Assembly (NCBI GenBank): GCA_021809425.1
Contig: JAKBAA010000001.1
Location: 26,693-90,692 of the forward strand
DNA length: 64,000 nucleotides
From: Actinomycetes bacterium
GTDB lineage: Bacteria; Actinomycetota; Acidimicrobiia; Acidimicrobiales; Bog-793
Reading direction: 5' to 3'
In this document: positions 32,233 to 48,423 of the stretch, in pieces
Layout of the letters: every line of letters starts with the position of its first letter
Numbering within the stretch: the stretch's first letter is position 1
Made by a program: the position numbers and the translations under genes
The notes under the pieces: model-generated
Databases searched by the model: none
Told to the model about the DNA's origin: nothing
What the model saw: only the letters and a program-made list of their open reading frames with translations

Positions 32233-32285
32233 CGGAGGCCCGCCCCGGCGTCGGGCCGGGGCCGGGCCGGGGCCGGGGCGGCGCG

Positions 32286-33404
32286 CTAGTAGCGGATGAC
32301 GCCGCGGATGTTCTTGCCGGCGTGCATGTCCTCGTAGCCGCGTGCGACCTCGTCGAGGGAGTACTCGGTGGTGACGAGCTCGTCCAGCTTGAGGCGGCCC
32401 TCCCGGTAGAGGCGGGCCTGGCGAAGGATGTCCGAGCTCGGCCGGGACGAGCCGAACACGGTGCCCTGGATCCGCTTCTGGAAGGTGGTCAGCTCGACGA
32501 AGGAGACCGGGATGCCCTTCTCCCCGGCGTCGCCGAGCCCGGTGATGACGACGGTGCCGGCCTTGCGGATGGCCGAGACGGCTTCGGCGACGTGCTCGCC
32601 GTGGACGACGCCGATGGCGACGATGCAGGCATCCGCGCCCTGGCCGTTCGTGACGCTGCGGGCGAGGTCGGCGGCCTCGTCGATCGTGGCGAAGGCGTGG
32701 GTGGCGCCGAACACGGGTGCCTGCTCGCGCTTGAAGGCGACCGGGTCGACGGCGATGACGTGGGAGGCGCCGGCGTGGGCGGCGCCCTGGACGGCGTTCA
32801 TGCCGATCCCGCCGAGGCCCATCACGATGACGGTCTCGCCCGGCTTGACCCCGGCGGCGTACACGGACGAGCCCCAGCCGGTGCCGACGGCGCAGCCGAG
32901 CAGGCAGAGCCGCTCGAGCGGGAGGTCCCGGTCGACCTTCACCGCCGAGTTGACGTCGACCACGGTGTGCTCGGCGAACGACCCGACGCCGAGCAGCTGG
33001 GCGACCGGGGTGCCGTCGGTCAGGTGGAACCGGTAGCTGTCGTGGTCGAAGAACCGGTGGCCCGCCAGCGCGTAGGCGCCGAGGTCGCACAGGTTCTGCA
33101 TGCCCTCGGCGCACCAGCGGCAGCGGCCGCACCCGGGGAGGAACGAGAACACCACGTGGTCGCCCACCTCCCAGCCCGGCGTGCCGGGGCCGACCGACTC
33201 CACGACGCCGGCGCCCTCGTGGCCGCCGAGGCAGGGGTACCGGGCGACGGCCATGTCGCCGGTGGCCACGTGGTCGTCCGAGTGGCACAGGCCGCTCGCC
33301 ACCATCCGCACGCCGAGCTCGCCCTGGCGGGGGGCGTCCAGCTCGAGATCGACCACCTCGAAGCTGCCGGGCGTCTTCCTGACGACTGCGCCGCGGGTCC
33401 GCAC
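32286..33404 (-). CDS. zinc-dependent alcohol dehydrogenase (NDMA-dependent-ADH-like)
   Basis: GTG 33404 follows GGAGG. The segments GLCHSDDH, GHEGAGVV and CGRCRWC match Zn-ADHs. The C-terminus is GKNIRGVIRY. Confidence 0.9.
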   Translation of the reverse strand: MRTRGAVVRKTPGSFEVVDLELDAPRQGELGVRMVASGLCHSDDHVATGDMAVARYPCLGGHEGAGVVESVGPGTPGWEVGDHVVFSFLPGCGRCRWCAEGMQNLCDLGAYALAGHRFFDHDSYRFHLTDGTPVAQLLGVGSFAEHTVVDVNSAVKVDRDLPLERLCLLGCAVGTGWGSSVYAAGVKPGETVIVMGLGGIGMNAVQGAAHAGASHVIAVDPVAFKREQAPVFGATHAFATIDEAADLARSVTNGQGADACIVAIGVVHGEHVAEAVSAIRKAGTVVITGLGDAGEKGIPVSFVELTTFQKRIQGTVFGSSRPSSDILRQARLYREGRLKLDELVTTEYSLDEVARGYEDMHAGKNIRGVIRY

Positions 33405-33529
33405 GCCGACCACCTCCAGACCCCGGGCCCCACCGCCCGGATCGGCGTGAGCGTAGCCCCGCCGCCGCCGGACGTGGCCCGGTCGGTGGTCGCGCCGACC
33501 GAGGCATGCGCCGGCCGTGCGGCCAGCGC

Positions 33530-35041
33530 TCAGCGCCCGGTGCCGCTCGCAGCAGCGAGGGCGGCGAGCGCTGCCGCCTCGGCGGCGACGGCCGCCGCCA
33601 GCTCTGTGTCGTCGGCGAGCGGCGGGTCGAGCGCGGCCAGCGCCCGCCGGGCCGCCTCCGGGCCGTGGCCGGCCCCGACCGGCAGGTCGCCGGCACGGGC
33701 GTCCCGCACCGGGGCGCCCAGGCCGTCGAGGTGGCACAGCCAGGCGGCCACGAGCCGCACGACGCCGGGCGGCAGCCGCCGCCCGGCGCGTGCCGCCGCG
33801 AGCACCGGGACGACCCGCACCCGCAGCTTGTCGGTACCGTCCGCGGCGATCCGCTCCAGGCGGTCGGCGAGGCGGACGTTGGCGAACCGGCCGAGCAACG
33901 TCGCTCGATAGGCGGCGAGGTCGCTCTCCCCGAGCGGGTCGCCCGCCCCGGCATCGACCCCGCCCGCGCTGGCCGCGCTGCCCTGGCCAGCAGGGCCACC
34001 GGCGCCACCGGGGCCACCGGGGCCACCGGGGCCACCGGGGCCAGCAGGGCCACCGGGGCCACCGGCCAGAACGGTGGCGGCCTCGTCCCACCACTGCTCG
34101 AGCCATTCCTGGCAGCGCTCGTCGGCGACGGCCTCGTCGATCTGGCGGTGGCCGAGCAGGCCGCCGGCGTAGGCGAGGAGCGAGTGCCCGCCGTTCAGCA
34201 GGAGGAGCTTGCGGGTGGCATACGGCCGCACGTCGTCGACGAGGCGCGCCCCGGCCGCTTCCCAGGAGGGGCGGCCGGCAGGGAAGTCGCCGGCGAGGAC
34301 CCACTCGGCGAACGGCTCGGTGACGACCGGAGCGGCGTCGTCGGCCCCGGTGGCGGCGGCGACGAGCCGCCGGTCGGCGTCGGTGGCGGCAGGGGTGATC
34401 CGGTCGACGACCGTCGTCACCGGCACGAGCAGGGCGACGAGCGCGGCGGCACGCCGGGCGTCGACCCGCTCGGCGAGCTGGCGGACGGCCCCGGCCAGCA
34501 CGGCGCCGTTGGAGGGGAGGTTGTCGCAGGCGACGAGCGCCACCGGCGGTGCCCCGGCCGCTGCCCGGGCGGCCAGACCGGCGAGCAGGCGCCCCGGCGC
34601 GGTACGCGCCGGCCCTTCCGGGGAGCGGCGCAGGGCGGCGACGTCGTCGTCGAGGTCCGGATCCCCCTGGCGCAGGCGCCCGGCCGGGTCGAGGTGATGG
34701 CCGGCCTCGGTGACGGTGACCGTGACGGCCTGCAGCGCCGGGTCCCGCCAGCGGCGGCGCCACGCGGCGTCGTCGCTTCCCGGGTAGGCCTCGGCGACGG
34801 CGTCGACCACCTCGAAGGCGTCGGTGGCACCCCGGGTGACCAGCGTGTAGCGGCCCCCCTGGCGCTCGAGGGCCTCGGCGAGGGCGGCGGAGCGACCGGA
34901 GAAGGCGGCGTAGCCGTGCTCGGCGGCGTCGGGGGCGTGGGCCGTGTACCAGGCGGCATGCGCCCGGAAGAAGTTGCCGAGACCGAGGTGGACCAGGCGG
35001 ACCGGTGGTGCCGGCCGGTGCCGGGCGAGCGGTTGGCTCAC
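33530..35041 (-). CDS. mannitol dehydrogenase family oxidoreductase (UxuB/UxaB-like)
   Basis: GTG 35041 overlaps the uxaC stop (GTGA). The segments VHLGLGNFFRAH, CDNLPSNG and KLLLLNGGHS match the family. Confidence 0.85.
   Translation of the reverse strand: MSQPLARHRPAPPVRLVHLGLGNFFRAHAAWYTAHAPDAAEHGYAAFSGRSAALAEALERQGGRYTLVTRGATDAFEVVDAVAEAYPGSDDAAWRRRWRDPALQAVTVTVTEAGHHLDPAGRLRQGDPDLDDDVAALRRSPEGPARTAPGRLLAGLAARAAAGAPPVALVACDNLPSNGAVLAGAVRQLAERVDARRAAALVALLVPVTTVVDRITPAATDADRRLVAAATGADDAAPVVTEPFAEWVLAGDFPAGRPSWEAAGARLVDDVRPYATRKLLLLNGGHSLLAYAGGLLGHRQIDEAVADERCQEWLEQWWDEAATVLAGGPGGPAGPGGPGGPGGPGGAGGPAGQGSAASAGGVDAGAGDPLGESDLAAYRATLLGRFANVRLADRLERIAADGTDKLRVRVVPVLAAARAGRRLPPGVVRLVAAWLCHLDGLGAPVRDARAGDLPVGAGHGPEAARRALAALDPPLADDTELAAAVAAEAAALAALAAASGTGR
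33985..34074. repeat. 9-nt tandem repeat (GGCCACCGG)x10 inside the mannitol dehydrogenase CDS
   Basis: Direct reading of the sequence. It encodes GGPGGPAGPGGPGGPGGPGGAGGPAG on the minus strand. Confidence 0.9.
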
Positions 35042-36453
35042 AGCTTGAAGGCGGTGCGCGCCTGGGAGACGAGGCCGGCCGCTACCTCGGCGGCCTCGTC
35101 CTCGCCGAGGCGGTGCTCGGCGACGAGCCGGGCCAGCGTGCCCGCCTCGATCCGGCGTGCCATGTCGTGACGCGCCGGGATGGAGCAGAAGGCACGGGTG
35201 TCGTCGACGAAGCCCGACAGGCGGCTGAACCCTGCCGTCTCGGTGACGGCCTCGTGGAAGCGGCGGATGGCATCGGGGGCGTCGAGGAACCACCACGGCA
35301 CGCCGGCGTACACGCTCGGGTAGAACCCGGCGAGGGGGGCCAGCTCGCGCGACCAGACGGTCTCGTCGGTGCTGAACACGACGAGGTGGAAGCCGTGCAC
35401 GGTGCCGAACCGCTCGAGCAGCGGCCGGAGGGAACGGGTGAGCTCGAGGCGGACCGGGATGTCGTGGCCGGTGTCCGGTCCGAACCGCTCGGTGGTGGGG
35501 CCGTGGTGGCCGCGCAGCACGCCGGCGTGCAGGGCCATGACGAGGCCGTCCTCGCACGAGCAGCGGGCCATCTCGAGCAGCAGGTGGCGGCGAAGGGCCG
35601 CCGCCTCGGCCGGGGTCGCCGTGCCGGCGCGGGCGCTCCGGTGGATCCGCTCGGCCTCCGATGCCGACAGCGGCTCGGTGCCGGCGTCGAGGTGGGCGTG
35701 GTCGCTCGCCGTGGCGCCGTTCTCGATGAAGTGGCGCCGTCGTACAGAAAGTGCCTCGACCAGGCCGGCTGCCGTGCCGGTGTCGGTGTCGGCCGCCTTT
35801 GCCAGGCGCGTGAGGTGGGCTGGCCAGCCCGGGCGGCCGGGCTCGAGGTAGGGGTCGGGGCGGAACGTCGGGCGCACGGAGAAGCCGGCCGCCTGGAGGG
35901 CGGCGTGCGCGGCGAGGTCGTCGCAGGGATCGTCGGTGGTGGCGAGCACGTCGAGGCGGAACCGGCGGAACAGCGCCCTCGGGCGGAATGCCGGCTCGGC
36001 GAGCCGGGCGGCGACGGCGTCGTAGGTGCGCTCGGCCGAGGCCGCCGACAGGGGCTCGTCGACGCCGAACAGGTCGGCGAGCTCGTGCTCGAGCCACCAC
36101 CGCACCGGGGTTCCCCGGAACCGGGTCCACCGCTCGCACAGCCGCTGCCAGATGGCCCGCGCCTCGGCCTCGCTCGGCGGCGAGCTCGCCACGCCGGCCG
36201 GACGCCGCCCGAGGAGCTCGAGCGGGACGCCGTCGGCGTGGAGGAGTCGGGTGACGTAGTGGTCGGGGGTGACGAGCAGGCTGGCCGGGTCGGCGAACGG
36301 GGCGTCGTCCAGCAGCACCCGGGCGTCGACGTGCCCGTGGGGCGACACGATCGGGGCGTCGCGCACCGCCTCGTAGAGCCGGCGGGCGATCGGGCGCAGC
36401 GCCGGGTCGGGCGGGAGCAGGCGGTCGGGGTGGGGGGTTCCGGTGGCCGGCAC
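35038..36453 (-). CDS. uxaC: glucuronate (uronate) isomerase
   Basis: 471 aa. The segments IVSPHGHVD, LLVTPDHYVTRLL and VFSTDETVWSREL are characteristic of UxaC. Confidence 0.9.
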   Translation of the reverse strand: MPATGTPHPDRLLPPDPALRPIARRLYEAVRDAPIVSPHGHVDARVLLDDAPFADPASLLVTPDHYVTRLLHADGVPLELLGRRPAGVASSPPSEAEARAIWQRLCERWTRFRGTPVRWWLEHELADLFGVDEPLSAASAERTYDAVAARLAEPAFRPRALFRRFRLDVLATTDDPCDDLAAHAALQAAGFSVRPTFRPDPYLEPGRPGWPAHLTRLAKAADTDTGTAAGLVEALSVRRRHFIENGATASDHAHLDAGTEPLSASEAERIHRSARAGTATPAEAAALRRHLLLEMARCSCEDGLVMALHAGVLRGHHGPTTERFGPDTGHDIPVRLELTRSLRPLLERFGTVHGFHLVVFSTDETVWSRELAPLAGFYPSVYAGVPWWFLDAPDAIRRFHEAVTETAGFSRLSGFVDDTRAFCSIPARHDMARRIEAGTLARLVAEHRLGEDEAAEVAAGLVSQARTAFKL

Positions 36454-36507
36454 CCCCCTAGTTTGGCCGCCGGGGAGGGGCGGTGCGCGACGTGCCGGCG
36501 CCGCGCG

Positions 36508-37794
36508 TCATGCCGGGGGGCCGCCCGTCGCCGTACCGAGCGCCTGGTCGAGGTCGTCGAGCAGGTCGTCGACGTGCTCGAGGCCGAGCGACAGCCGGAT
36601 CATGTCCGGGCGGATGCCCACCGCCTCGAGGTCGGCCGGGCCGAGCTGGCGGTGGGTGGTCGAGGCGGGGTGGACCACGAGCGAGCGGGTGTCGCCCAGG
36701 TTGAGCATGCGCTTGAACAGCTGCACGGCGTCGAAGAAGGCAAGGCCGGCCTCGTAGCCGCCGGCGACCCCGAAGGTGAGCACCGACGGGCAGCGCCCGC
36801 CGAGGTAGCGGGCGACGAGGTCGTGGCTCGGGTGGTCGGGGAAGCCGGCATAGCTGACCCAGGCGACTCGCGGGTCGTCGCGCAGGTACTCGGCGACGGC
36901 CCGGGCGTTGGCCATCTGCCGCTCGAGCCGCACGGCCAGCGTCTCGAGCCCCTGGAGGGCGAGGAAGGCGTTGAAGGGTGCCAGGGTCGGCCCGCCGTTG
37001 CGCATCCCGACGGTGCGGCACCGCACGAGGTAGGCGCGCTCGGGGAAGTCGCGGGCGTACACCACGCCGTGGAAGGCCGGCTCGGGCTCGTTGAGCATCG
37101 GGAAGCGCCCGGGGTGGTCGCCCCAGGGAAAGCGGCCGGCGTCGACGACGACGCCGCCGAGCAGCGTGCCGTGTCCGCCGACGAACTTCGTGAGCGAGTG
37201 CACGACCACGTCGGCGCCGTGGTCGATCGGCTTCAGGAGCAGCGGCGTGGCCATCGTGTTGTCGACGACCAGCGGAACGCCGGCCTCGTGGGCCACCTCG
37301 GCGAGGGCGGCGAGGTCGACCAGGTTGCCGGCCGGGTTGCCGATGCTCTCGCAGTAGACGAGCCGGGTGTCGTCGTCGATCAGGCGGGCCACCGCCTCCG
37401 GGCGGTCGTCGGTGGAGAAGCGCGCCTCGATGCCCTCCTCGGCGAGCCCGTGGGCGAACAGCGTGTAGGTCGCCCCGTACAGGTTGGGCACCGTCACCAC
37501 GTTGCTGCCGGCAGTCGCAAGGTTGCGCACGGCCTGGTACACGGCAGCCATGCCCGAGGCGTAGCTGAGGGCGCCGGTGCCGTGCTCGAGGGCGGCCATG
37601 CGACGCTCGAGGACGTCGTTGGTCGGGTTGGCCAGCCGGTTGTAATGGAAGCCGGGCTGCTCGAGGTCGAAGATCCTCCCGGCCACCTCGGCGCTCTCGA
37701 GCTCGTGGGACACCGTCTGGTAGATCGGCACGGCGCCTGCCCCGGTCGCCTCGCCGGCGTAGCCGCCGTGGATCGCTACGGTCTCGTCGCGCAC
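36508..37794 (-). CDS. metY: O-acetylhomoserine/O-succinylhomoserine sulfhydrylase-type PLP enzyme
   Basis: GTG 37794 follows GAGGAGG. The segments VAIHGGY, NPTNDVLE and the PLP lysine motif HSLTKFVGGHG match MetY. The C-terminus reads IRLSLGLEHVDDL. Confidence 0.9.
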   Translation of the reverse strand: MRDETVAIHGGYAGEATGAGAVPIYQTVSHELESAEVAGRIFDLEQPGFHYNRLANPTNDVLERRMAALEHGTGALSYASGMAAVYQAVRNLATAGSNVVTVPNLYGATYTLFAHGLAEEGIEARFSTDDRPEAVARLIDDDTRLVYCESIGNPAGNLVDLAALAEVAHEAGVPLVVDNTMATPLLLKPIDHGADVVVHSLTKFVGGHGTLLGGVVVDAGRFPWGDHPGRFPMLNEPEPAFHGVVYARDFPERAYLVRCRTVGMRNGGPTLAPFNAFLALQGLETLAVRLERQMANARAVAEYLRDDPRVAWVSYAGFPDHPSHDLVARYLGGRCPSVLTFGVAGGYEAGLAFFDAVQLFKRMLNLGDTRSLVVHPASTTHRQLGPADLEAVGIRPDMIRLSLGLEHVDDLLDDLDQALGTATGGPPA

Positions 37795-37807
37795 GCGCCC
37801 TCCTCGC

Positions 37808-38746
37808 TCAGCCCGCCCGCCGGGTCGTCGCAGCCTTGCGGTGGGCGACCTCGTCGAGCCAGTTGGCGAGCAGGCGCACCATCGGCGGCCGCCAGGTGGC
37901 GTCGAGGCCGGCAGCGCACGCCTCGAAGGGGAACGCGTCCGCCAGGCCCGACGGGCGCCCGATGGCCCGAAGGCGGAAGTCCCGGAGGCGGGCGGCGCCG
38001 CTGGCCGGGAGGTAGCCGGAGGGCAGCTCGGGGTACTTGTCCTGCTCACCGGCCAGGTAGCGGCGCACGTCACGCCGGTACTCCCGCAGCAGCGTCGTGG
38101 CGTCGTACTCGGGGTGCCCCTGGAGCAGCAGGCGGAGGCAGCCGTCGTCGCGGGCGGCGACCGTCCAGCCGACGGTGTCCGACCCGGCCAGCACCTGATA
38201 GCCGCTCGCCTCGAGGTCGGCTGGGGTGACGTCGTGCAGGCGCGAGTGCGGGCAGGCGACGGGGCCGACGTCCCGGGTGAGCCGGTGGGTGGCGTCGACC
38301 CACTGGGGGAACACCCCGCTCAGCTTCTGCGGCAGCCGCCGCCGCTCGACGCCGTCGCCGGCGAGGAGGGCACCGTGGGCGGCGAGGCACGACAGGGCAA
38401 CCGAGTGGGTCGACTGCTTCGCCCAGTCGAGCAGCGACGAGAGGGAAGCCCAGGTCGGCTCCTCGCGCAGGTCGCGACAGCGGGGCTCGCTGCCCGTGAC
38501 GACGAGGGCATCGGGCGGCCGGCGCTGCAGGTCCTCAACGGCCTCGTAGCGCCCGTCGAGCTCGTGGCGCACGCCGTCCCCCCGGCCGGGATCCGGGAGC
38601 GAGGTCAGGCGCAGCACGAACGGCCGCCCGCCCGCCGCCGCCTCGAGCAGGTCACGAAACTGGCGCTCGGTCGCCAGGAAAGCGGCGTCGGGCATGTTGT
38701 TGACGAGCGCCACCTCGACGGCGGCCGGCCGCGAGCCCATCGTCAC
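37808..38746 (-). CDS. metA: homoserine O-acyltransferase, MetA family
   Basis: The sequence aligns with E. coli MetA. LVNNMPD corresponds to ILNLMPKK, the nucleophile Cys lies in LSCLAAH, and PHSRL and GHPEYD are present. GTG 38746 overlaps the upstream stop (GTGA). Confidence 0.85.
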   Translation of the reverse strand: MTMGSRPAAVEVALVNNMPDAAFLATERQFRDLLEAAAGGRPFVLRLTSLPDPGRGDGVRHELDGRYEAVEDLQRRPPDALVVTGSEPRCRDLREEPTWASLSSLLDWAKQSTHSVALSCLAAHGALLAGDGVERRRLPQKLSGVFPQWVDATHRLTRDVGPVACPHSRLHDVTPADLEASGYQVLAGSDTVGWTVAARDDGCLRLLLQGHPEYDATTLLREYRRDVRRYLAGEQDKYPELPSGYLPASGAARLRDFRLRAIGRPSGLADAFPFEACAAGLDATWRPPMVRLLANWLDEVAHRKAATTRRAG

Positions 38747-40101
38747 GCCACCGCCGGCCGCCGCTCCGCCAGGGCCGCCTGCTGCTGGGGCGCCCTGCCG
38801 ACCGTCCTGCCGTCCTCGCCGCCCTCAGCGAGCGCGTAGTCATCGGCGAGCTCGTAGCGGGCCTCGACGAGGTCGTCCAGCTGGCGGCGTGCGGCTGCCA
38901 CCCCGGCCAGGTCGGGCGCTGTGCCGACGACCGAGAAGAGGAACGACCGGGAGCCGAGGCGCGGGTCGAAGGTGCTCCCGGGCGGCAGGTGCGGCGCCAC
39001 GCTCTCCACCCCGGGTGCCGAGGCGAGCTCGCGCAGCCCGGAGAGCGAGACGAGCCGGCGGGCCTCGACGGGCGGCTGGTAGAAGAACCGGTAGCCGAAC
39101 CGCTGGCAGGGGAGGAGGGCCGGGCAGTCGACCGGCAGGTCGAGCGCGCCGCGCAGATGGTCGACCAGCAGGTCCCGCCCGGAGGCGGCGAGCAGCAGGT
39201 CGCGGATGCCACCGCCCATCCGGCCGTTGACCTCGAGGATGCGCGGGCCGTCCGGGGTGAGCTTGACCTCGGTGTGCAAGCAGCCGGTCGTCACCTCGAG
39301 CGCCTCGAGGGCAGCAGTGGCCGTCGACAGGACGGCGGCGGTGGCGGCCCGGTCGAGGTGGCCGGCCGGAAGGAAGAACCCGGTCTCGCGAAAGGGCGCC
39401 ACCGGCGGTGTGCGGCCGGTGACGGCCACGTGCACGAGGCCGCGCGAGGTGGCGAGCGTCTCCACCGACACGTAGTCGGCGAACGGCCCGTCGGTGGCCC
39501 CTTGCATGCTCGGGAGGTACTCCTCGAGCACCATCGCCGAGGGGGCACCGGCCGAGCCGGACACCTCGCCCAACGCCCTCGCCAGGTCGCCGGGGTCCTC
39601 GACGAGGAACGTGTGGTAGCTGCCCGAGCCCTGTCGCGGCTTGAGCACGGCCGGAAAGTCGACGTGCCGGGCGGCCTCCGCCGCCGCCTCGAGGTCGCTC
39701 GGGTCGAGGAGGGGCACGATCGCCGGGCCGGGCAGGCCGGCGCTGGCGAGCGCCCGGCGCTGGGTCAGCTTGTCGGCCAGCCGCTCGGCCACCTCGGGAC
39801 GGTGGAAGCGCAGGCCGAGCGCCGCCGCCAGGCGGGCGACGAGAACGAGGTCGTCGTCGCGGAAGGCGACCGCCCCGGCCAGCTCGTGGCCGGCGAGCTC
39901 GGCGACGAGGACGGCGAACGGCTGGTCCGTGCGCACGACCGGGCCCAGGTGGTCGAGCAGGCGGCGGGTCGCCACGACGTCGGGGTCGGACGGATCGACG
40001 AGGAAGACCGGCCGGCACAGCCCGGAGGCGGCACCGGCCAGCTGGAGGACCGGCAGCGAGCGGTAGCCGTGCGGGACGAGCACGGCGGGGAGCCCGCTCA
40101 C
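38743..40101 (-). CDS. ATP-grasp domain protein (L-amino-acid-ligase-like)
   Basis: GTG 40101 overlaps the upstream stop (GTGA). The ATP-grasp segments are AVLKPRQGSGSYHTF, VLEEYLP and ILEVNGRMGGG. Confidence 0.8.
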   Translation of the reverse strand: MSGLPAVLVPHGYRSLPVLQLAGAASGLCRPVFLVDPSDPDVVATRRLLDHLGPVVRTDQPFAVLVAELAGHELAGAVAFRDDDLVLVARLAAALGLRFHRPEVAERLADKLTQRRALASAGLPGPAIVPLLDPSDLEAAAEAARHVDFPAVLKPRQGSGSYHTFLVEDPGDLARALGEVSGSAGAPSAMVLEEYLPSMQGATDGPFADYVSVETLATSRGLVHVAVTGRTPPVAPFRETGFFLPAGHLDRAATAAVLSTATAALEALEVTTGCLHTEVKLTPDGPRILEVNGRMGGGIRDLLLAASGRDLLVDHLRGALDLPVDCPALLPCQRFGYRFFYQPPVEARRLVSLSGLRELASAPGVESVAPHLPPGSTFDPRLGSRSFLFSVVGTAPDLAGVAAARRQLDDLVEARYELADDYALAEGGEDGRTVGRAPQQQAALAERRPAVA

Positions 40102-41954
40102 GGGGCGCCCCCGGCGATCTCGTCGACGCAGCGCCCGGCGTCGAGGAACGCCCGGACCCTGCTGGCCGGCGACGGGAGGTAGGCCGTGTAGTACCGCACC
40201 CCTTCGCTCGGAGCGCCGAACACCCAGAGCCGTCGCTCCACACCGCTCGCCGTGCGCGGGTGGAAGTCGTCGGTGAGGTCGATCGAGCCGACGTCCTCGC
40301 CGTCGAGGTGCAGCTGGCGGATGCGGCCCCGGTCGTACAGGCGACGGAGCAGCGGCGAGCTCGAGCGGTGGATGGTCGGCTCGTCGAGGTGGCCGACGAC
40401 CACGTGGTCCACGCGCTCGGCGTGCGGGTTGTCGAGGAACCGGGACACCACGACCGCCCCCTGCTTCGCCGGCAGCACGGCGGGGGCCGGCCCGAAGGGC
40501 ATGCGGACGATCTCGGCGTCCATCAACGCCAGCAGCTGCTCGGAGCGGTGCACCGGCGGCCCGGCGACCAGCCGGGCGAGCGGGTTGCGCAGGTTGGCCT
40601 GGAAGTCCCGGTACGAGGCGGCGGTGAGCCCGCCGAACTCGAGGGCGAGCCGCAAGGTGTCTCGCAGCGCCCGCAGCACCTCCTGGGCGCGCTTGTGCGG
40701 GCTCGACCCGTTGGGCACCCGCGCCGCCGCGACGTCCTGCTCGAGCATCGCCGAGACGTGGGTCTGGTAGTCCTTGCCGCTGAGGAACGAGCCGCCGCCC
40801 TTGGCGAACAGCGCCTCGGTGGCGTCGAACGGTCCGAAGCGCTCGGCGAGGTCGGCGACGGCTGCCGGGTAGGTGCCGGTGCGCCACGCAGCGGCCAGCG
40901 TCGCGGCGACGGCCCGGCCCGCCTCGGGACCCTGCTCCGCCGCGGCGCACTCGTGGTAGTAGCACGACGTCATCTCGGCGAGCACGAGCGGCACCAGCTC
41001 GCGCCGGGCGTCGATCGGTCGGCCGCCCGGTCGCGGCGGCGCGGCACCGTCGGGTGCCAGCGGCGAGGCCGCTGGCGGCCCCGGGATGCGCCGCAGGTTG
41101 GCCACCGCCTCCGGCGTCAGGATGGTGGGCCGGTAGCCACCGGTCATGTCGGCCGCCCCGAGCGACTTCGCGCAGTACGGGTAGCCGGAGCGCGAGAACA
41201 GGCTGAGCCTCGGCTCCTCGCCGGAGGGCAGGTAGTGCAGTCCGCCGTTGCGTCGGACGAACGTCCCGCCGCGGCCCACGGTGAGCGCCGTGACGACGTC
41301 GACGGCGACGAGCCCCATTCCGCGAATGGCGACCGACGACCCGGGACGGATGGCGCGCTGCAGGGCTCCCACCGGGTACGGCGCCAGCATGAACTCCGGC
41401 AGCGACCGCTCGTTGGCGGTGTGACCGGTCGTGAGCACCACGTGGTCCACCTCGAGGACGGCGCCGTTCGCCAGCTGCACCCGCTCCCTGCCTTCACGGG
41501 TGGCCACGTCGACGGCGAGCGTCTCGTGGTGCACGATGCGGACCGAGGCAGGTGCCTCCTCGACGAGGCAGCGGTAGAACCAGGCGAGGTACTCGCCCAT
41601 CAGCCGGCGCGGCAGGAAGTCGTGGGGGCTGATCGGCCGGCCTGCCGTCGTCCGCTCGCAGCGGTCGCCGACCCACTGGTACCCCTCGTTGACGGCCCAC
41701 TCGTGGAACCCGGTCGCCCGCCGGCCGCGCGCCGCCTCGGGGAACGGGTACATCGAGTGCTCCCCGCAGGGGGTGTTGAGGATCAGGTAGTCGGGCTGGT
41801 CGCCGCCGAAGACCCCCGGGCCGGGCATGCTCGGGTCGATCACGTGCACGGTGAGGCCGGGGATGTCGGAGCGCTCCATCCACGTCGTGACGAGGCGTTC
41901 GAGCACGGCAAGGCCCCAGGGGCCCATGCCGATGACTGCGACGTCGATCATCAT
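40098..41954 (-). CDS. FAD/NAD(P)-binding protein (NAD_binding_9-like, about 618 aa)
   Basis: ATG 41954 gives MMIDVAVIGMGPWGLAVLERL. A second dinucleotide motif is VAIRGMGLVAVDVV. The overall architecture matches the uncharacterised FAD-NAD(P)-binding proteins. Confidence 0.8.
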   Translation of the reverse strand: MMIDVAVIGMGPWGLAVLERLVTTWMERSDIPGLTVHVIDPSMPGPGVFGGDQPDYLILNTPCGEHSMYPFPEAARGRRATGFHEWAVNEGYQWVGDRCERTTAGRPISPHDFLPRRLMGEYLAWFYRCLVEEAPASVRIVHHETLAVDVATREGRERVQLANGAVLEVDHVVLTTGHTANERSLPEFMLAPYPVGALQRAIRPGSSVAIRGMGLVAVDVVTALTVGRGGTFVRRNGGLHYLPSGEEPRLSLFSRSGYPYCAKSLGAADMTGGYRPTILTPEAVANLRRIPGPPAASPLAPDGAAPPRPGGRPIDARRELVPLVLAEMTSCYYHECAAAEQGPEAGRAVAATLAAAWRTGTYPAAVADLAERFGPFDATEALFAKGGGSFLSGKDYQTHVSAMLEQDVAAARVPNGSSPHKRAQEVLRALRDTLRLALEFGGLTAASYRDFQANLRNPLARLVAGPPVHRSEQLLALMDAEIVRMPFGPAPAVLPAKQGAVVVSRFLDNPHAERVDHVVVGHLDEPTIHRSSSPLLRRLYDRGRIRQLHLDGEDVGSIDLTDDFHPRTASGVERRLWVFGAPSEGVRYYTAYLPSPASRVRAFLDAGRCVDEIAGGAP

Positions 41955-42148
41955 CCTCCCGCCTCGCTCCCGGGCTCCAGGCCGCTCGCTCACCCGAAAC
42001 CTACGAAGGGTGCGTCTCAGGCCCGTCTGCTTGCCGTCTCGACCTCCGACACCACGTACCGGGTGGCGCGGCCAACGGGAGCGACGGCACCCAGACGCAC
42101 GCGAGCGGGCCGACGGGGCCTGCACCGACCGGCCGGCGGTAGCTTGAG

Positions 42149-43039
42149 GTGGGCGAGGAGGTGGCGTTGGCCGTCGGCGTGGTGCATCCGGGAGCGATGG
42201 GCGCGGCGGTGGGGGCGGCGTTGCGGGCGGTCGGCACGGAGGTGTGCTGGGCGTCCGAGGGCCGCAGCCCTGCGACGGTCGACCGGGCGGCGGCGGCCGG
42301 GTTGACCGACGTCCGGACGCTGTCGGCCCTGGCCCGCCGCTGCCCGCTCGTCCTGTCCATCTGCCCGCCGCACGCGGCCCTTGCCGTCGCCGGCCAGGTG
42401 GCCGGCGCCGGGTTCGCCGGTTGCTTCGTCGACGCCAACGCCGTGTCGCCGGCGACGGCCCGCTCGGTCGCCGCCGCCGTCGAGGCGGCCGGCGCCCGCT
42501 ACGTCGACGGCAGCCTGATCGGCCCACCGCCGGCGCCGGGGCGACCCGTCCACCTGTGGCTCTCCGGCCGTGGCGCCGACGAGGTGGCGGCGCGCTTTGC
42601 CCGGACCGACGTGCGCGCCCGTGTCGTGCAGGCCGGGGACACGGCCGCGTCCTCGTTGAAGGCCGCCTTCGCCGCCTGGACGAAGGGTTCGGCGGCGCTG
42701 CTGCTCGCTGTCCGGGCCCTGGCGCGCGCGAGCGGCGTCGAGCAGGAGCTGCTCCTCGAGTGGGCCGACCTGTCCCCGGCCCTCACCGGCGACAGCGACC
42801 GGGCGGCCCTGCAGGCGGCGCGCAAGGGCTGGCGGTGGGTCGGCGAGATGCACGAGATCGCCGCGACCTTCGCGGCGGTTGGTATTCCCCCTGGATTCCA
42901 CGAGGCAGCAGCCGAGGTCTATGGCGCCGTCGCGCCCGAGCCGCATGTGCCGCCCGAGCATCCCGTGCCGCCCGTGCCGCCCGTGCCGCCCGTGCCGCCC
43001 GGACGAGCGGCGCCGGCGACGGGCGCCCGGGCAGGCTGA
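42149..43039 (+). CDS. NAD(P)-binding dehydrogenase with a DUF1932-like C-domain
   Basis: The segments GVVHPGAMGAAVG and SSLKAAFAAWTKG are typical. The start is uncertain: GTG 42149, or TTG 42167 after GAGGAGG. The C-terminal (PVP)n tail comes from a 9-nt repeat at 42947-43000. Confidence 0.7.
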   Translation: MGEEVALAVGVVHPGAMGAAVGAALRAVGTEVCWASEGRSPATVDRAAAAGLTDVRTLSALARRCPLVLSICPPHAALAVAGQVAGAGFAGCFVDANAVSPATARSVAAAVEAAGARYVDGSLIGPPPAPGRPVHLWLSGRGADEVAARFARTDVRARVVQAGDTAASSLKAAFAAWTKGSAALLLAVRALARASGVEQELLLEWADLSPALTGDSDRAALQAARKGWRWVGEMHEIAATFAAVGIPPGFHEAAAEVYGAVAPEPHVPPEHPVPPVPPVPPVPPGRAAPATGARAG

Positions 43040-43042
43040 ACC

Positions 43043-43528
43043 GTGCGCTTCCACGCCGAGCACCGGTTCGCCTCGCCGCCGCCGGCCGTGGCCGACGTGC
43101 TGGCGGACGCCGACTTCTATCGCAGCCTCGACCTCGCCGACGTCGCCGTCCCCGAGGTGCTGGCAGCGGCGAGCGACGGGACGAGTGCCGTCGTGCGCCT
43201 CCGCTACGAGTTCACCGGCCACCTCGATCCGCTGGTGCGCCGGCTGCTCGCCGGGCGGCCGCTCACCTGGCTGCAGGAGCTTCGCCTGGACCGGGCAGAC
43301 GGGACCGGCGAGCTCGAGCTCCACGCCGAGGCCGCCCCGGGGCGCTTGCGGGGTCGGGCGACCTTCCAGCTGGTCGCCGACGGCGCCGGCACGCTGCGGC
43401 GGCTGGACGGCGAGCTCGTGGTCGCCCTGGTTGGGCTCGGCCGGGGGGTCGAGGGGCGGATCGTCCCCGGCATCCTCGCCCGGCTCGACCGGGAGGCCGA
43501 CGCCGTCCGGGCCCGCCTGGACGTCTGA
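43043..43528 (+). CDS. DUF2505 (SRPBCC-like) domain protein
   Basis: 161-aa ORF. The sequence runs MRFHAEHRF...DADFY, then LRYEF, then the C-terminus, as in DUF2505 proteins. Confidence 0.65.
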   Translation: MRFHAEHRFASPPPAVADVLADADFYRSLDLADVAVPEVLAAASDGTSAVVRLRYEFTGHLDPLVRRLLAGRPLTWLQELRLDRADGTGELELHAEAAPGRLRGRATFQLVADGAGTLRRLDGELVVALVGLGRGVEGRIVPGILARLDREADAVRARLDV

Positions 43529-43914
43529 CCCGGCACCGCGTCCGCAGGCCGGGACCGGTGAGCCCGCCGGCCCGGTCCGGCGCGTTTGCCCGGTCGCCCG
43601 GGAGGGCAGGCGGTTGGTGCACGCCGGCACCGACGACCGGTGGCCAAGCGGGGTGCTGTGACCGCAGGGTCGCGGCAGAGGCGAGGAGGGAGTGGTCGAT
43701 GATGCGACGGTCCTTGCGACGGCCCGGCCCGGGCAGGCGTACCCGCACGAGCACGAGCGGTCCGTGCCCCTGGTCGGCGGGCTCGTGGTCGCCGCCGTGC
43801 GCCGGTGCGCTCGTGCTGCGGGCGCCGGTGCGCACGGCGGCCGAGCTCGCCGCCACCGGCGTGGCCCACCCGACCGTCTAGGACCCCGCCGCCGCCGCCC
43901 GCTACGCTGCCCGG

Positions 43915-44493
43915 ATGGGCCTGGCGGGGGAGTTCGGCTCGGTCCGCCACCTCGTCGGGCGCTTCTTCGGCGCCCTGTCGCCGGCCGGCCCCCGGCCGGA
44001 CGACGAGCAGTGGGCGCTCGCCCAGCTGCTGCCGGGCGAGCAGGCGCTGTGGGCGCGCATGTCCGGGCCCGATCGCCGGCACGCCGTCGGGGTCGCCCGG
44101 GACGCCCTGGGGCGTCTCTCGGAGGACGGCGGGACCCCGGGCCGCGAGGTGGCGGCGAGCGCCCTGCTCCACGACGTCGGCAAGGTGGCATCCGGGCTCG
44201 GCACCTTCGGCCGGGTCGGGGCGACGGTGGTGACGCTCGTCGTGGGCCGCGACCGTCTTGTCGGACCCGGACCCGGACCCGGCGCAGGCCCTCGGGCGGG
44301 GGACCGGCCGGGGAGCTGGCGGCAGCGCCTTGCCGCCTACCTGACCCACGACCGGATCGGCGCCGAGCTGCTGCGTGCCGCCGGCAGCCACCCCGACACC
44401 GTGGCGTGGGCCGGCGAGCACCACCTGCCGAGCGGGCAGTGGACCCTGGAGCGCCGGGTGGCCGACGCCCTCAAGGCGGCGGACGGCGACTGA
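43915..44493 (+). CDS. HD domain-containing protein
   Basis: The segments RRHAVGVA and LLHDVGK match HD proteins. The C-terminus reads W.GEHH. Confidence 0.75.
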   Translation: MGLAGEFGSVRHLVGRFFGALSPAGPRPDDEQWALAQLLPGEQALWARMSGPDRRHAVGVARDALGRLSEDGGTPGREVAASALLHDVGKVASGLGTFGRVGATVVTLVVGRDRLVGPGPGPGAGPRAGDRPGSWRQRLAAYLTHDRIGAELLRAAGSHPDTVAWAGEHHLPSGQWTLERRVADALKAADGD

Positions 44494-44544
44494 GCTCCAG
44501 GCGGGTCGGGCCAGGCGGGCCGGCGCACGCCCGGGCGGGGCGGC

Positions 44545-45273
44545 CTAGTCGGGCGGGGCGGCGTCCTTCGAGAGGATGCGGACCGTCGGGACCGGCTCGA
44601 CCCGGCGGCTGCCCGGCGGCGGTGTCGGCGTGCGGCGACCGCCCGGGGCAGTCGCCTGCTGGCCGTCGGCGGTCGCCCGCTTGTAGGAGCGGTAGCGGTG
44701 GACGATGGCGAGGGCGAGGGCGACGACGGCGAGCGCCCCGAGCAGGTAGCCGGCGTCGTTGAACCCGTGGACGATCGTCTGCCAGCGCGTGCCGACCCCG
44801 TAGCCGATGCCGGCCCAGGCGCCGTCCCAGATGAGCGAGCCGAGCAGGGTCAAGAGGCCGAAGCGGACGAGGGGCACCTCGGCGACACCGGCCGGGAGGG
44901 CGACGAAGTTGCGGATGACCGGAAGAAGCCGGCTGCCGAACACGCCGAAGCGGCCGTGCCGCTGGTACCAGGCCTCGGCCCGGTTGAGGTCGTGGTGGCT
45001 GAGCAGGACGTACTTGCCGAACCGGTCCACGAAGGCCCGTCCGCCGGTGCGCCCGATGATCCAGGCGATGTAGGCACCGACGAGCTCGCCGCCGGCTCCG
45101 GCGGCGATGGCGTAGGGGAGGCTCAGCTTGTGCTCGGCGGCGAGCACGCCGGCGAAGCCGAGGGTGAGCTCCGACGAGGTCGGGACGCAGCAGGACTGCA
45201 GCACCGAGAGGAAGAAGATCGCGGCGTAACCGGACGAGGCGACGAGCGTCTGCGGGTTGAGGAGCGCGAGCAC
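44545..45273 (-). CDS. DedA family membrane protein
   Basis: The segments SSELTLGFAG, RLLPVIRNFVALPAG and SLIWDG match DedA proteins. Confidence 0.85.
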   Translation of the reverse strand: MLALLNPQTLVASSGYAAIFFLSVLQSCCVPTSSELTLGFAGVLAAEHKLSLPYAIAAGAGGELVGAYIAWIIGRTGGRAFVDRFGKYVLLSHHDLNRAEAWYQRHGRFGVFGSRLLPVIRNFVALPAGVAEVPLVRFGLLTLLGSLIWDGAWAGIGYGVGTRWQTIVHGFNDAGYLLGALAVVALALAIVHRYRSYKRATADGQQATAPGGRRTPTPPPGSRRVEPVPTVRILSKDAAPPD

Positions 45274-45510
45274 ATGCCTACGCTAGGCGATGGAGCCAGC
45301 GGCGTGGTGCCACGGCGCGTGCTGCCTCCCGCCGTTCCGGCCGGACGCGTGGGCGCACCGAGCGGCGGCCGGCGGATCGCCCGCCGCTCGTGACGTTCGG
45401 CCCTAGGTCGGCGGGGGCGGGTGGGCGATGGTGGGGTTGGCCCATGACCAGGGCCCCGCCGCCGGCGGGAGCGCCGCCGGCGCGGCCAAGGCGACGAGGG
45501 ACGGTGCGAC

Positions 45511-47940
45511 ATGGCGACCTACGTGCGCTTCTTCGAGGAGATCGGCATGGGGGACGTCGCCGTGGCGGGGGGCAAGAACGCCAACCTCGGCGAGCTGTAC
45601 CGCAACCTTTCGGCGGCCGGGATCCGGGTCCCGAACGGCTTCGTGCTGACGGCGGACGCCTACCGGTACGTGATGGACGAGGCGAAGGCGTGGGAGCCGC
45701 TGCACGAGGCGCTCGACGGGCTCGACCCGAGCGACCTCGAGGACCTGGCGCGGCGCGGTCGCCGGGCGCGGGAGATCGTGTACGGCGCCGGCATGCCCCA
45801 CCCGCTCGTCGACGAGCTGCTCGCCGGCTACCACGAGCTGCAGCGGCAGTACGGGCCCGAGCTGCGCCTCGCCGTGCGGTCGTCGGCGACGGCGGAGGAC
45901 CTGCCGACGGCGAGCTTCGCCGGCCAGCAGGAGACGTTCCTCAACGTACGCGGCGACGACCAGCTGGTGGATGCCTGCCGCCGCTGCTTCGCCAGCCTGT
46001 TCACCGACCGGTCGATCCATTACCGGATCGACCAGGGATTCGACCACTACTCGGTGGCGCTGTCGATCGGGGTGATGAAGCTCGTCCGCTCCGACCTGGC
46101 CTCGTCGGGCGTCATGTTCAGCATCGACACCGAGACGGGCTTCCCCGACGTCGTGTTCATCACCGGCTCGTACGGGCTCGGCGAGAACGTGGTCCAGGGC
46201 ACCGTCGACCCGGACGAGCTGTACGTGCACAAGCCGACCTACGAGCGCGGCCACCGGACCGTGCTGCGGCGACGCCGCGGCGACAAGGCGGTCAAGCTGG
46301 TGCTGGTCGACGGGGAGACCGGTCGCACCACCCGCAACGTGCCGACGCCGAAGGCCGACCGGGCGCGGTTCTGCCTGACCGACGACGAGGCGCTCGAGCT
46401 CGCCGGCTACGCCGTGGCGATCGAGCGCCACTACGACCGTCCGATGGACATGGAGTGGGCGAAGGATGGCATCGACGGCCTGCTCTACATGGTCCAGGCC
46501 CGCCCGGAGACGGTGGCGTCGCAGCGGGCGGCGACGACGCTCGAGCGCTACCTGCTGGACGTGCCAGAGGGCGGCGAGGTCACGGTGCTCGTCGAGGGCC
46601 GGGCCGTCGGCGAGCGTGCGGCATCGGGCGAGGTCCGGGTGATCGACCGGCTCGACCAGCTGTCGAGGTTCCGGCCGGGCGAGGTCCTCGTCGCCGACAC
46701 GACGACGCCGGACTGGGAGCCGGTGATGAAGAAGGCAAAGGCCATCGTGACGAACCGGGGCGGGCGGACCTGCCACGCCGCCATCGTCGCCCGCGAGCTC
46801 GGGATCCCGGCAGTGGTGGGCACGGCGACGGCGACACAGGTCCTGCACAGCGGCGCCCCCGTCACCGTGTCGTGCGCCGAGGGGGAGACCGGGCGGGTCT
46901 ACGCCGGGGCGCTCCCGTTCCACGTCGAGCGGTCCGAGCTCGGCGAGCTCGCCCGGCCGGCGACCGAGGTGATGGTCAACCTGGGCAATCCCGACCTGGC
47001 CTTCTCGACGTCGTTCCTTCCGAACGACGGCGTCGGTCTGGCCCGGATGGAGTTCATCGTGAGCGAGCACGTCCGTGCCCACCCGCTCGCCCTGCTCCAT
47101 CCCGAGCGGGTGGTCGACCCGTCGGAGCGGGCCGCCATCGCCGAGCTCGTGGCCGGCTACCCGGACGGCGGTGCCTACTTCGTCGAGCGGCTGTCGGAGG
47201 GCATCGGCACGATCGCGGCGGCGTTCTACCCGAAGCCGGTGGTCGTGCGGATGTCGGACTTCAAGACCAACGAGTACGCCACCCTGCTCGGCGGGGCGGC
47301 GTTCGAGCCGGTCGAGGACAACCCGATGCTCGGGTTCCGGGGTGCCAGCCGGTACGCCCACCCGGCCTACGAGGAGGGGTTCGCCCTCGAGTGCGCCGCC
47401 ATGCGCCGGGTGCGAGAGGACATGGGGCTCGACAACGTCGTGCTCATGCTGCCGTTCGTGCGGCGGGTCGACGAGGCCGAGCGGGTGCTCGGGCGGATGG
47501 CCGACCTCGGCCTTCGCCGGGGCGAGCACGGGCTGAAGATCTACGCCATGTGCGAGGTGCCGAGCAACGTCGTCGCCATCGACCGGTTCGCCCCGCTGTT
47601 CGACGGGCTCTCGATCGGCTCGAACGACCTCACCCAGCTCACCCTCGGGGTCGACCGGGACAGCGAGCTCGTGGCGTTCGACTACGACGAGCGGGACGAG
47701 GCGGTGAAGGAGATGCTGCGGCTCGCCGTCGAGGGGTGCGCCCGCAACGGGATCCACTCGGGACTGTGCGGCCAGGCGCCGTCGGACCTGCCCGAGATCG
47801 CCGAGTACCTGGTCGAGCTCGGGATCGACTCGGTCAGCCTCAACCCCGACAGCGTGCTGCGGGTGACCCGGCACCTGCACGAGGTCGAGCAGCGGATCGG
47901 CCGGTCGCCACGCCCGGACCCGGCGGGTTCGGCCGTCTGA
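45511..47940 (+). CDS. ppsA: phosphoenolpyruvate synthase
   Basis: 809 aa. The N-terminus includes GGKNANLGEL. The phosphohistidine motif is GGRTCHAAIVARELGIP. The C-terminus is a PEP-utilising TIM barrel. Confidence 0.95.
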   Translation: MATYVRFFEEIGMGDVAVAGGKNANLGELYRNLSAAGIRVPNGFVLTADAYRYVMDEAKAWEPLHEALDGLDPSDLEDLARRGRRAREIVYGAGMPHPLVDELLAGYHELQRQYGPELRLAVRSSATAEDLPTASFAGQQETFLNVRGDDQLVDACRRCFASLFTDRSIHYRIDQGFDHYSVALSIGVMKLVRSDLASSGVMFSIDTETGFPDVVFITGSYGLGENVVQGTVDPDELYVHKPTYERGHRTVLRRRRGDKAVKLVLVDGETGRTTRNVPTPKADRARFCLTDDEALELAGYAVAIERHYDRPMDMEWAKDGIDGLLYMVQARPETVASQRAATTLERYLLDVPEGGEVTVLVEGRAVGERAASGEVRVIDRLDQLSRFRPGEVLVADTTTPDWEPVMKKAKAIVTNRGGRTCHAAIVARELGIPAVVGTATATQVLHSGAPVTVSCAEGETGRVYAGALPFHVERSELGELARPATEVMVNLGNPDLAFSTSFLPNDGVGLARMEFIVSEHVRAHPLALLHPERVVDPSERAAIAELVAGYPDGGAYFVERLSEGIGTIAAAFYPKPVVVRMSDFKTNEYATLLGGAAFEPVEDNPMLGFRGASRYAHPAYEEGFALECAAMRRVREDMGLDNVVLMLPFVRRVDEAERVLGRMADLGLRRGEHGLKIYAMCEVPSNVVAIDRFAPLFDGLSIGSNDLTQLTLGVDRDSELVAFDYDERDEAVKEMLRLAVEGCARNGIHSGLCGQAPSDLPEIAEYLVELGIDSVSLNPDSVLRVTRHLHEVEQRIGRSPRPDPAGSAV

Positions 47941-47946
47941 GCGGGG

Positions 47947-48423
47947 GTGGGGGCCATGGCCGAGGTGCGCACCGGCGTGTCGGGGGTCCCCCCGGCGCCC
48001 GAGCGGGCGGGTCGACCGGTAGTCGTCGGGGTCGACGGCTCGTCAGGGAGCGTGGCGGCGCTCCGCTGGGCGGCCGACTACGCCGCGCTGACCGGCTCGT
48101 CCCTCCATGCCGTCATCGCCTGGGAGCACGACACGGGCTTCGGGTTCCAGCTGCGCGGCGGCACCCTCCACGACGAGGCCCGGCACCGCCTGGAGCAGGC
48201 TGTCCACAAGGCCATCGGCGCCGGGGCCGACCGGGTGGTGCTCGAGGTCGTCGAAGGCCGGCCGGAGGAGGTGCTCGTCCAGGCGTCGCGGGGCGCCGGG
48301 CTGCTCGTTGTCGGCGAGCGTGGCTACGCCGGGGTCGCCGGCCTCCTGCTCGGCCACTGCGGCGAGGCGTGCATGCGGCACGCTGCGTGCACCACCGTGC
48401 TCGTGCGCGGCGACGGCCACTGA
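47947..48423 (+). CDS. universal stress protein
   Basis: The segments VVVGVDGSSGSVAALRWA and LLVVGERG.....LLGHCGEACMRHAACTTVLV match UspA-family proteins. An alternative start is ATG 47956. Confidence 0.8.
   Translation: MGAMAEVRTGVSGVPPAPERAGRPVVVGVDGSSGSVAALRWAADYAALTGSSLHAVIAWEHDTGFGFQLRGGTLHDEARHRLEQAVHKAIGAGADRVVLEVVEGRPEEVLVQASRGAGLLVVGERGYAGVAGLLLGHCGEACMRHAACTTVLVRGDGH

Follow-up and report, generated by a model that had tools for sequence, protein, structure and literature searches.

A four-gene operon joining a predicted CreE/FzmM-type flavin monooxygenase and an ATP-grasp ligase to MetA and MetY: probably a specialised amino-acid module of uncultured bacteria

The window analysed here is a 64,000-nucleotide (nt) stretch of contig JAKBAA010000001.1 (assembly GCA_021809425.1, an Actinomycetes bacterium of the order Acidimicrobiales), with a G+C content of about 75%. 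On its minus strand lie four consecutive open reading frames (ORFs) encoding a flavoprotein, an ATP-grasp ligase, a homoserine O-acyltransferase of the MetA family and the pyridoxal 5'-phosphate (PLP) enzyme MetY, at the coordinates given in the original prediction, which had been made from the letters and their translations (Table 1). Together they make up a tightly packed operon of four genes, which in the window stands in its bare form. All four family assignments hold when tested with the hidden Markov models of Pfam and NCBIfam, and the two stop/start overlaps and the spacer carrying GAGGAGG, also proposed at that earlier stage, can be read directly in the sequence. At the flavoprotein/ATP-grasp junction, CCCGTGAGC, the flavoprotein gene ends in GCC CCG TGA and has the letters GTGA in common with the GTG start of the ATP-grasp gene; at the ATP-grasp/MetA junction, GGCGTGACGATG, the ATP-grasp gene ends in GTG GCG TGA, again with a GTGA overlap. 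For MetA, public gene calls use an alternative start, the ATG at 38740, 6 nt downstream, which gives a protein of 310 amino acids (aa).

Table 1 The operon and the DNA on either side of it (positions in the window)
Feature	Position	Strand	Description
Flavoprotein	40098-41954	-	618 aa, first gene of the operon
ATP-grasp	38743-40101	-	452 aa, GTG start overlapping the flavoprotein stop (GTGA)
MetA	37808-38746	-	312 aa from GTG, overlapping the ATP-grasp stop codon
MetA/MetY spacer	37795-37807	-	13 nt, GCGAGGAGGGCGC, with Shine-Dalgarno-like GAGGAGG inside; read from the sequence
MetY	36508-37794	-	428 aa
Intergenic region upstream of the operon	41955-42148		presumed promoter region, shared with the divergent NAD-binding/DUF1932 gene
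Gap between MetY stop and uxaC start	36454-36507	-	54 nt, same strand, no predicted terminator

The original prediction had suggested asking whether these four families occur as neighbours in other genomes, and they do so across phyla. A scan in which each of 185,579 species was represented by a single genome found relatives of the flavoprotein in 252, distributed patchily over several phyla and in uncultured lineages. Neighbourhoods were compared for the best 80 of these 252 relatives, all from metagenome-assembled genomes (MAGs) belonging to the Acidimicrobiales/Acidimicrobiaceae, the Solirubrobacterales and the Dormibacterota, together with a single member of the Acidiferrales and a “Mycobacterium” bin that is either mislabelled or atypical; the identity of these 80 flavoproteins to that of the window never goes beyond 65%. 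A homologue search with the flavoprotein gave 892 matches, every one of them from a metagenome or a MAG. Linkage was counted in the 60 of the 80 loci with 5 kb or more to either side, comparing all their ORFs with the four proteins of the window, and in 50 of these 60 genomes both MetA and MetY lie within 6 kb of the flavoprotein; the ATP-grasp gene is present as well in 24, and in 17 it stands directly upstream of metA. Several seeming absences of genes among the loci represent frameshifted long-read assemblies.

This conserved neighbourhood reaches the Acidimicrobiales, the Solirubrobacterales, the Dormibacterota and one MAG of the Acidiferrales, and its internal order is far from fixed: besides the co-directional four-gene form there is one in which grasp-metA-metY is convergent with the flavoprotein gene, and in the Dormibacterota the arrangement is metA-metY-flavoprotein. 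Since the linkage has been kept while gene order and orientation vary, it has evidently outlasted rearrangement. Protein fusions tell a similar story. Many of the flavoprotein homologues at about 50% identity are some 950 aa long and carry PF13454 and PF04204 in a single protein, the flavoprotein N-terminal and MetA C-terminal (a fusion found in 8 of the 80 loci), while ATP-grasp is fused to MetA in one protein (P0150) and to the flavoprotein in another (P0427, the flavoprotein part of which is 39% identical to that of the window). The arrangement is far above chance, and the evidence supports the four genes as a functional unit rather than as a housekeeping metAY pair with hitch-hikers.

A few loci depart from this pattern in other ways. 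In a soil metagenome contig (L001, 10999-12290) a toxin-antitoxin pair of the RHH-PIN type and two small ORFs lie between the flavoprotein::MetA gene and MetY, so that the module evidently tolerates interruption. In two others (L057 and L084) MetA and MetY appear to be split or degraded beside an intact flavoprotein gene, which could be either a frameshift error of a long-read MAG or real pseudogenisation.

The flavoprotein matches PF13454 with 116 bits and has by sequence just one solved relative, 8CP2, the L-aspartate N-hydroxylase of Streptomyces sp. V2 (FzmM/CreE type), found by phmmer with E 1e-53 over residues 2-597. An AlphaFold model (predicted local distance difference test, pLDDT, 83; predicted template-modelling score, pTM, 0.82) was compared with known structures using Foldseek, which gave 8CP2 and 8CP5 at a template-modelling (TM) score of 0.82, followed by DesB, putrescine N-hydroxylase and SidA, and after these by Baeyer-Villiger monooxygenases and flavin-containing monooxygenases. 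The residues lining the pocket, taken from the published work on FzmM (PMC10404684), were mapped onto an alignment of 120 homologues. The catalytic core is kept, Asn60 (FzmM Asn62, above C4a of the flavin) and Arg428, Arg431 and Arg435 (Arg409, Arg412 and Arg416) being invariant in all 120, and the entry chamber for aspartate is lost: R13 has become W13 (110 of 111), R276 has become G273 (D, E, G or V in the clade) and R577 has become S595 (118 of 120), with further changes of V571 to Y589 (F or Y in the clade) and of N413 to D432. In FzmM itself the mutation N413E abolished hydroxylation, while N413A and V571F gave Km values for aspartate above 1 mM and 4 mM (PMC10404684). What defines the clade is W13, S595, an insert at about 78-100 and three invariant cysteines, Cys63, Cys99 and Cys609, of which Cys63 sits three residues past the Asn over the flavin and Cys609 lies on the C-terminal helix, near the arginines of the FzmM tunnel entrance. 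Judged from alignment and model, the flavoprotein is a predicted class B monooxygenase using reduced nicotinamide adenine dinucleotide phosphate (NADPH) and flavin adenine dinucleotide (FAD), its likely substrate being other than aspartate and less acidic.

No nitrosuccinate lyase (CreD/FzmL, of the fumarase/argininosuccinate lyase family) was found in the operon or in the flanks scanned with Pfam (32286-35041 and 42149-44493; the ORF at 35038-36453 is UxaC), and the CreD/FzmL type is likewise missing from the gene families that recur as neighbours in the 80 loci. The superfamily to which the flavoprotein belongs falls into about 2,200 clusters when grouped at 50% identity; to our knowledge its known substrates are aspartate (CreE/FzmM) and 2-aminoethylphosphonate (PcxL) only. 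Some of its distant members (P0514, P0501, P0512, P0497 and P0503) are fused to NUDIX, to phosphoenolpyruvate mutase and HAD (phosphonate metabolism) or to metallo-beta-lactamase domains, and one member is embedded in a protein of 5,264 aa (P0503).

The second gene product is less sharply placed. It matches ATP-grasp_4 (PF13535) with 29.2 bits, against a cutoff of 27, and the C-terminal domain of L-amino-acid ligases (LAL_C2, PF18603) with 22.1 bits, below the cutoff of 29.4; its nearest solved relatives are the L-amino-acid ligases (LALs) BL00235 (3VOT, 48 bits, E 9e-12) and BacD, although these are distant, E for the LALs ranging from 9e-12 to 3e-9. Because these nearest solved relatives are L-amino-acid ligases, a dipeptide-forming role is plausible by analogy. 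Orthologues at 42-70% identity occur in the same lineages as the module.

A further gene of the same general type lies elsewhere in the window. The ATP-grasp paralogue that had been noticed at 11934 does exist (11934-13238); it shares 4 nt with a radical SAM gene and is a distant paralogue only (64 bits, E 4e-20). The locus (10441-13238, minus strand) consists of the radical SAM gene, of 498 aa, and this LAL-type ATP-grasp gene, of 434 aa, which has strong matches to ATP-grasp_4, LAL_C2 and ATPgrasp_N, and it is flanked by DUF169, Rieske and NifU-like genes (9731-10489, 7994-8743 and 13226-13933, all on the plus strand); the pair may be a separate small biosynthetic locus.

The remaining two enzymes are of familiar kinds. 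MetA matches PF04204 (HTS) with 167 bits, against a cutoff of 27, and falls below the cutoffs of the NCBIfam equivalog models for the succinyl or acetyl type (NF003776, 309.7 against 358; TIGR01001, 100 against 495; NF047918, 92 against 460); its Cys120, His211 and Glu213 align with the catalytic residues of solved MetAs and are invariant in the MetA alignment. The nearest MetAs outside the clade of the module, at 45-47% identity, are proteins of about 350 aa of the NF003776 type, for instance from Steroidobacteraceae, which lie in simple metY-metA pairs lacking a flavoprotein gene and have all the strongly conserved motifs in common with it. MetY matches PF01053 with 396 bits and TIGR01326 with 549 bits (cutoff 495), and it aligns over nearly its full length with the MetYs of T. 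maritima and T. thermophilus (E 3e-128 and 3.5e-127 respectively). The motifs earlier singled out as catalytic signatures can all be found: LSCLAAH and GHPEYD fall on the catalytic Cys, His and Glu of solved MetA, and SLTKFVGGHG on the PLP lysine of solved MetY; more generally the active site of MetY is kept, with PLP Lys203, Tyr51, Arg53, Tyr106 and Asn153 corresponding to Lys210, Tyr58, Arg60, Tyr113 and Asn161 of the T. maritima enzyme. In that enzyme Arg270 forms a wall of the site and limits the second substrate to bisulfide (PMC8191291). This gate is kept in the window (R265), and the residue is Arg in 58 of 58 module-linked MetYs; compared with three canonical MetYs, those of the module differ systematically at two positions only, K188 and F241. 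By sequence, then, MetA looks canonical and MetY looks like a genuine homocysteine synthase using sulfide.

Riboswitches for S-adenosylmethionine (SAM) are common ahead of actinobacterial met genes. A scan of positions 30000-48000 of the window with Rfam gave no family at E of 0.1 or below, hence no riboswitch for SAM or for S-adenosylhomocysteine, and in seven diverse related loci nothing reached the gathering score, SAM riboswitches included. No match to the sigma-70 consensus was found between 34800 and 42400, and a terminator scan gave a single terminator-like site, which is intragenic and at chance level. Lacking a SAM riboswitch and being patchily distributed, the operon looks unlike a regulated met operon.

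In some other genomes the module is found in richer company. Among the 80 loci, within 10 kb of the flavoprotein, there are genes for a carrier protein (PCP) in 27, for a phosphopantetheinyl transferase (PPTase) in 19, for a large two-lobed alpha/beta hydrolase in 27, for a stand-alone adenylation (A) domain in 37 and, in 11, for a SerRS-like protein of 300 aa that resembles amino-acid:carrier-protein ligases; such extra genes occur in about a third of the genomes, all of them Acidimicrobiia. Glycosyltransferase, flippase and CapK-like genes often adjoin the module, and in the Solirubrobacterales its neighbours include genes for sugar-nucleotide modification. Two loci of the Acidimicrobiales (L003, 4535-8004, and L011, 5738-9252) illustrate the point, in that the module is preceded in the same operon by a PPTase and an 85-aa carrier protein, and also by the 300-aa SerRS-like protein (a weak PF00587 match) and a 567-aa alpha/beta hydrolase, with Wzy and flippase genes adjoining. 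The window itself contains no neighbours of the carrier-protein, PPTase, hydrolase, A-domain, SerRS-like or glycosyltransferase type.

Our reading of these results, advanced with some reserve, is that the operon is probably a self-contained specialised amino-acid module instead of a plain methionine operon, its product being a modified amino acid. MetA would O-acylate L-homoserine, and MetY would then exchange the acyl group for sulfide to give L-homocysteine, the two acting as a dedicated supply pair. The monooxygenase of CreE/FzmM type, using NADPH and FAD, would oxygenate homocysteine, or something closely derived from it, at a heteroatom, in what would be the former aspartate pocket rebuilt in a less basic form; were the amine the target this might lead to an N-hydroxy, oxime or nitro compound, and were it the sulfur, to a sulfenate, sulfinate or sulfonate. 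FzmM carries out three successive oxygenations while the intermediates are held (PMC10404684), and a series running from amine to oxime or nitro group, or from thiol to sulfinate or sulfonate, would be a natural analogue of these. Finally the LAL-type ATP-grasp enzyme would convert a carboxylate to its acyl phosphate and from this form an amide or hydroxamate bond, giving a dipeptide-like product, and where genes for carrier proteins or polysaccharides accompany the module the ligase may pass the residue to them. The order of the steps, the substrate of the flavoenzyme, the atom oxygenated and the partners of the ligase are all matters that we infer. Oxygenation after MetY is favoured over the making of a nucleophile before it because the active site of MetY, including the bisulfide gate, is canonical, and because the flavoenzyme pocket is without the residues that bind a second carboxylate, fitting a zwitterionic amino acid such as homocysteine. 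The most specific version of this proposal, that the product is an N- or S-oxidised homocysteine which is ligated into a dipeptide and handed to carrier-protein or envelope-glycopolymer machinery in many uncultured Acidimicrobiia, is put forward more doubtfully; if true, the flavoprotein would be the first enzyme of the CreE/FzmM family acting beyond aspartate and aminoethylphosphonate.

There are several considerations that weigh against this proposal. What points to the substrate of the flavoenzyme is solely the set of pocket residues that have been lost, and two of the changes in the entry chamber, D432 and F/Y589, were ruled out as clade-specific features when an alignment of representatives of the 50%-identity clusters revealed them to be common across the wider superfamily. 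The invariant Cys63, Cys99 and Cys609 are unexplained by a simple monooxygenase and could speak for thiol/disulfide or persulfide chemistry. As to the ligase, the module of the Dormibacterota (metA-metY-flavoprotein) has none, and the ligase step must therefore be optional. Lastly, in the MetYs of the module the residue after the gate Arg is an invariant Asn266, where five solved sulfhydrylases have Asp, and position 241 is Phe as against the canonical Tyr; these Asn and Phe changes, lying near the Arg gate, might tune the choice of nucleophile.

A first alternative is a scheme, close to one of those first suggested for the locus, in which the nucleophile is made before MetY acts: the flavoprotein would N-hydroxylate a common amine, MetY would set the resulting N-O nucleophile on the gamma-carbon of O-acylhomoserine to give a canaline-like amino acid of the aminooxy or N-hydroxy kind, and the ATP-grasp enzyme would ligate or cyclise this. 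Such a scheme would suit a flavoprotein that belongs within a family of N-oxygenases, the flavoprotein::MetA fusion would then supply both co-substrates of MetY from one protein, and the invariant Asn266 (for Asp) and Phe241 (for Tyr) stand beside the nucleophile gate. It also has a precedent in D-cycloserine, whose enzymes DcsE, DcsD and DcsG provide acyl activation, PLP-dependent replacement and cyclisation by an ATP-grasp protein. Aminooxy amino acids built from homoserine, AOVG and FVG, are known (PMC13232609). However, no MetY of the module departs from the Arg that shuts out nucleophiles above the size of bisulfide, and the site around it is otherwise canonical; no lyase of the CreD/FzmL type that might free a small N-oxide is found in the operon, in the Pfam-scanned flanks or among the recurrent neighbours of the 80 loci, and the literature searched contains no gamma-replacement with an N-O nucleophile. 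The original suggestion, of a flavoprotein-made nucleophile that MetY attaches, is accordingly not favoured, given a gate Arg present in the window and in all 58 of the linked MetYs and just two systematic differences in MetY, although a small nucleophile would still be allowed; overall we regard the scheme as rather unlikely.

A second alternative stays closer to methionine, and we give it only a modest chance. On this account MetA and MetY are the homocysteine route of the cell and the flavoprotein is an NADPH-dependent reductase working through its invariant cysteines; sulfide would be released from a persulfide, polysulfide or disulfide, or else a thiol derived from homocysteine (possibly the product of the ATP-grasp enzyme) would be kept reduced. 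The canonical character of MetA and MetY is just what it would predict, the minimal three-gene form is found alone in the Dormibacterota, and of the three clade-specific invariant cysteines one lies near the flavin Asn and one on the C-terminal helix. Bdr/YpdA, a flavoprotein thiol reductase, also appears among the Foldseek matches, at rank 27; Bdr/YpdA is an enzyme that has no CxxC motif. On the other side, the flavoprotein keeps the hallmarks of an oxygenase (the Asn over C4a, the Arg cluster and the full three-domain fold of FzmM), no SAM riboswitch is present and no genes for sulfur assimilation, rhodanese or ThiS-like proteins occur among the neighbours, the distribution is patchy, and the recurring carrier-protein, A-domain and glycosyltransferase genes would be left unexplained by a housekeeping methionine route. 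Actinomycetota normally use MetX rather than MetA, which suggests that the MetA seen here is an extra copy.

The hitch-hiker alternative voiced in the original prediction, that a housekeeping metAY pair merely has unrelated genes riding along upstream of it, draws on the ordinary look of MetA and MetY and on the plain metY-metA pairs in which the nearest outside-clade MetAs are found, but it is rejected as very improbable indeed because the linkage is conserved (50 of 60 genomes, across phyla, despite reordered genes) and all three pairwise fusions exist, to which the translational coupling in the window may be added.

The limits of the module can be drawn from the same comparison. Five features of the window are left outside it because other genomes do not keep them beside the module: UxaC, the mannitol-dehydrogenase-family gene, the DUF1932 gene, DUF2505 and the radical SAM gene. 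Immediately behind MetY lies uxaC (uronate isomerase, 35038-36453, minus strand), which shares 4 nt with the mannitol-dehydrogenase-family gene that follows, the pair spanning 33530-36453. Read-through from MetY into these two genes is possible, but uxaC occupies this position in close relatives only (L089-L091) and is absent there in the 80 other genomes, and it is probably a read-through adjacency outside the module. In the mannitol-dehydrogenase-family gene, at about 33900-34100, there is a short stretch rich in Gly and Pro, with the translation GGPGGPAGPGGPGGPGGPGGAGGPAG, which in other frames reads as repeats of PRWPRWPRW or ATGATGATG; the Pfam match to the C-terminal domain of this enzyme falls in two separate stretches, and the Gly/Pro-rich sequence could be an insert that is hypervariable or prone to slippage.

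As a recurrent unit backed by fusions, the module points to some as yet undiscovered metabolite or modification of the cell surface. The names of the records suggest soil and peat (palsa, fen, SPRUCE) for the Acidimicrobiales, Solirubrobacterales and Dormibacterota MAGs that carry it. The result also widens the family of CreE/FzmM flavoenzymes, in which two substrates stand against some 2,200 clusters at 50% identity, and it serves as a warning for annotation, in that MetA and MetY in such genomes should not automatically be taken to denote methionine biosynthesis. The four genes are small and contiguous, and it would therefore be practical to express them.

No published description of this gene combination was found in the full-text literature, a body that does not cover subscription-only papers, which is in keeping with the novelty originally claimed for it; its parts nevertheless invite comparison with several known systems. 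With the pathway to D-cycloserine (DcsE, an O-acetyltransferase; DcsD, which carries out PLP-dependent beta-replacement with hydroxyurea; and DcsG, an ATP-grasp cyclase) the likeness is one of logic only, the shared pattern being activation of a hydroxy amino acid by acylation and a PLP-dependent replacement, together with an ATP-grasp enzyme and an N-oxygenating one, whereas that pathway draws on MetX-like and OASS-like proteins and on a haem enzyme that N-hydroxylates arginine, the chemistry is beta rather than gamma, and the MetY of the module keeps its bisulfide gate. The L-amino-acid ligases (BacD/YwfE, BL00235 and those of RizA type) provide the best matches of known structure to the ATP-grasp enzyme, which also has the weak match to their C-terminal domain, but they are distant from it (48 bits to 3VOT), and the ATP-grasp enzyme of the module is in some genomes fused to MetA or to the flavoprotein. 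Direct-sulfhydrylation operons of the metA-metY (or metY-metA) kind contain the same two families with the same catalytic residues; the pair in the module differs in being preceded by, coupled to and elsewhere fused with a predicted flavin monooxygenase and an ATP-grasp enzyme, in having no SAM riboswitch, and in being patchy and confined to uncultured lineages. The homoserine-derived oxyvinylglycines AOVG, FVG and GOVG (gvg cluster of Pseudomonas) are likewise non-proteinogenic amino acids on a homoserine skeleton with an N-O function, and the cluster is set apart by its description as proteobacterial and as using other enzyme classes, a formyltransferase and an amidinotransferase among them (PMC13232609).

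A further comparison is with the CreE/FzmM L-aspartate N-oxygenases (nitrosuccinate synthases, 8CP2/8CP5) together with PcxL, which have in common with the flavoprotein a three-domain class B fold (TM 0.82, 30% identity), the FAD and NADPH motifs, the Asn above C4a and the cluster of Arg409, Arg412 and Arg416. The flavoprotein of the module differs from CreE/FzmM in the replacements R13W, R276G, R577S and V571Y, in the insert at about 78-100 and in its three invariant cysteines, and also in its partners, having no nitrosuccinate lyase beside it and being linked or fused instead to MetA, MetY and ATP-grasp. The families to which the parts belong are thus known ones; it is their combination, their fusions and their distribution that are new.

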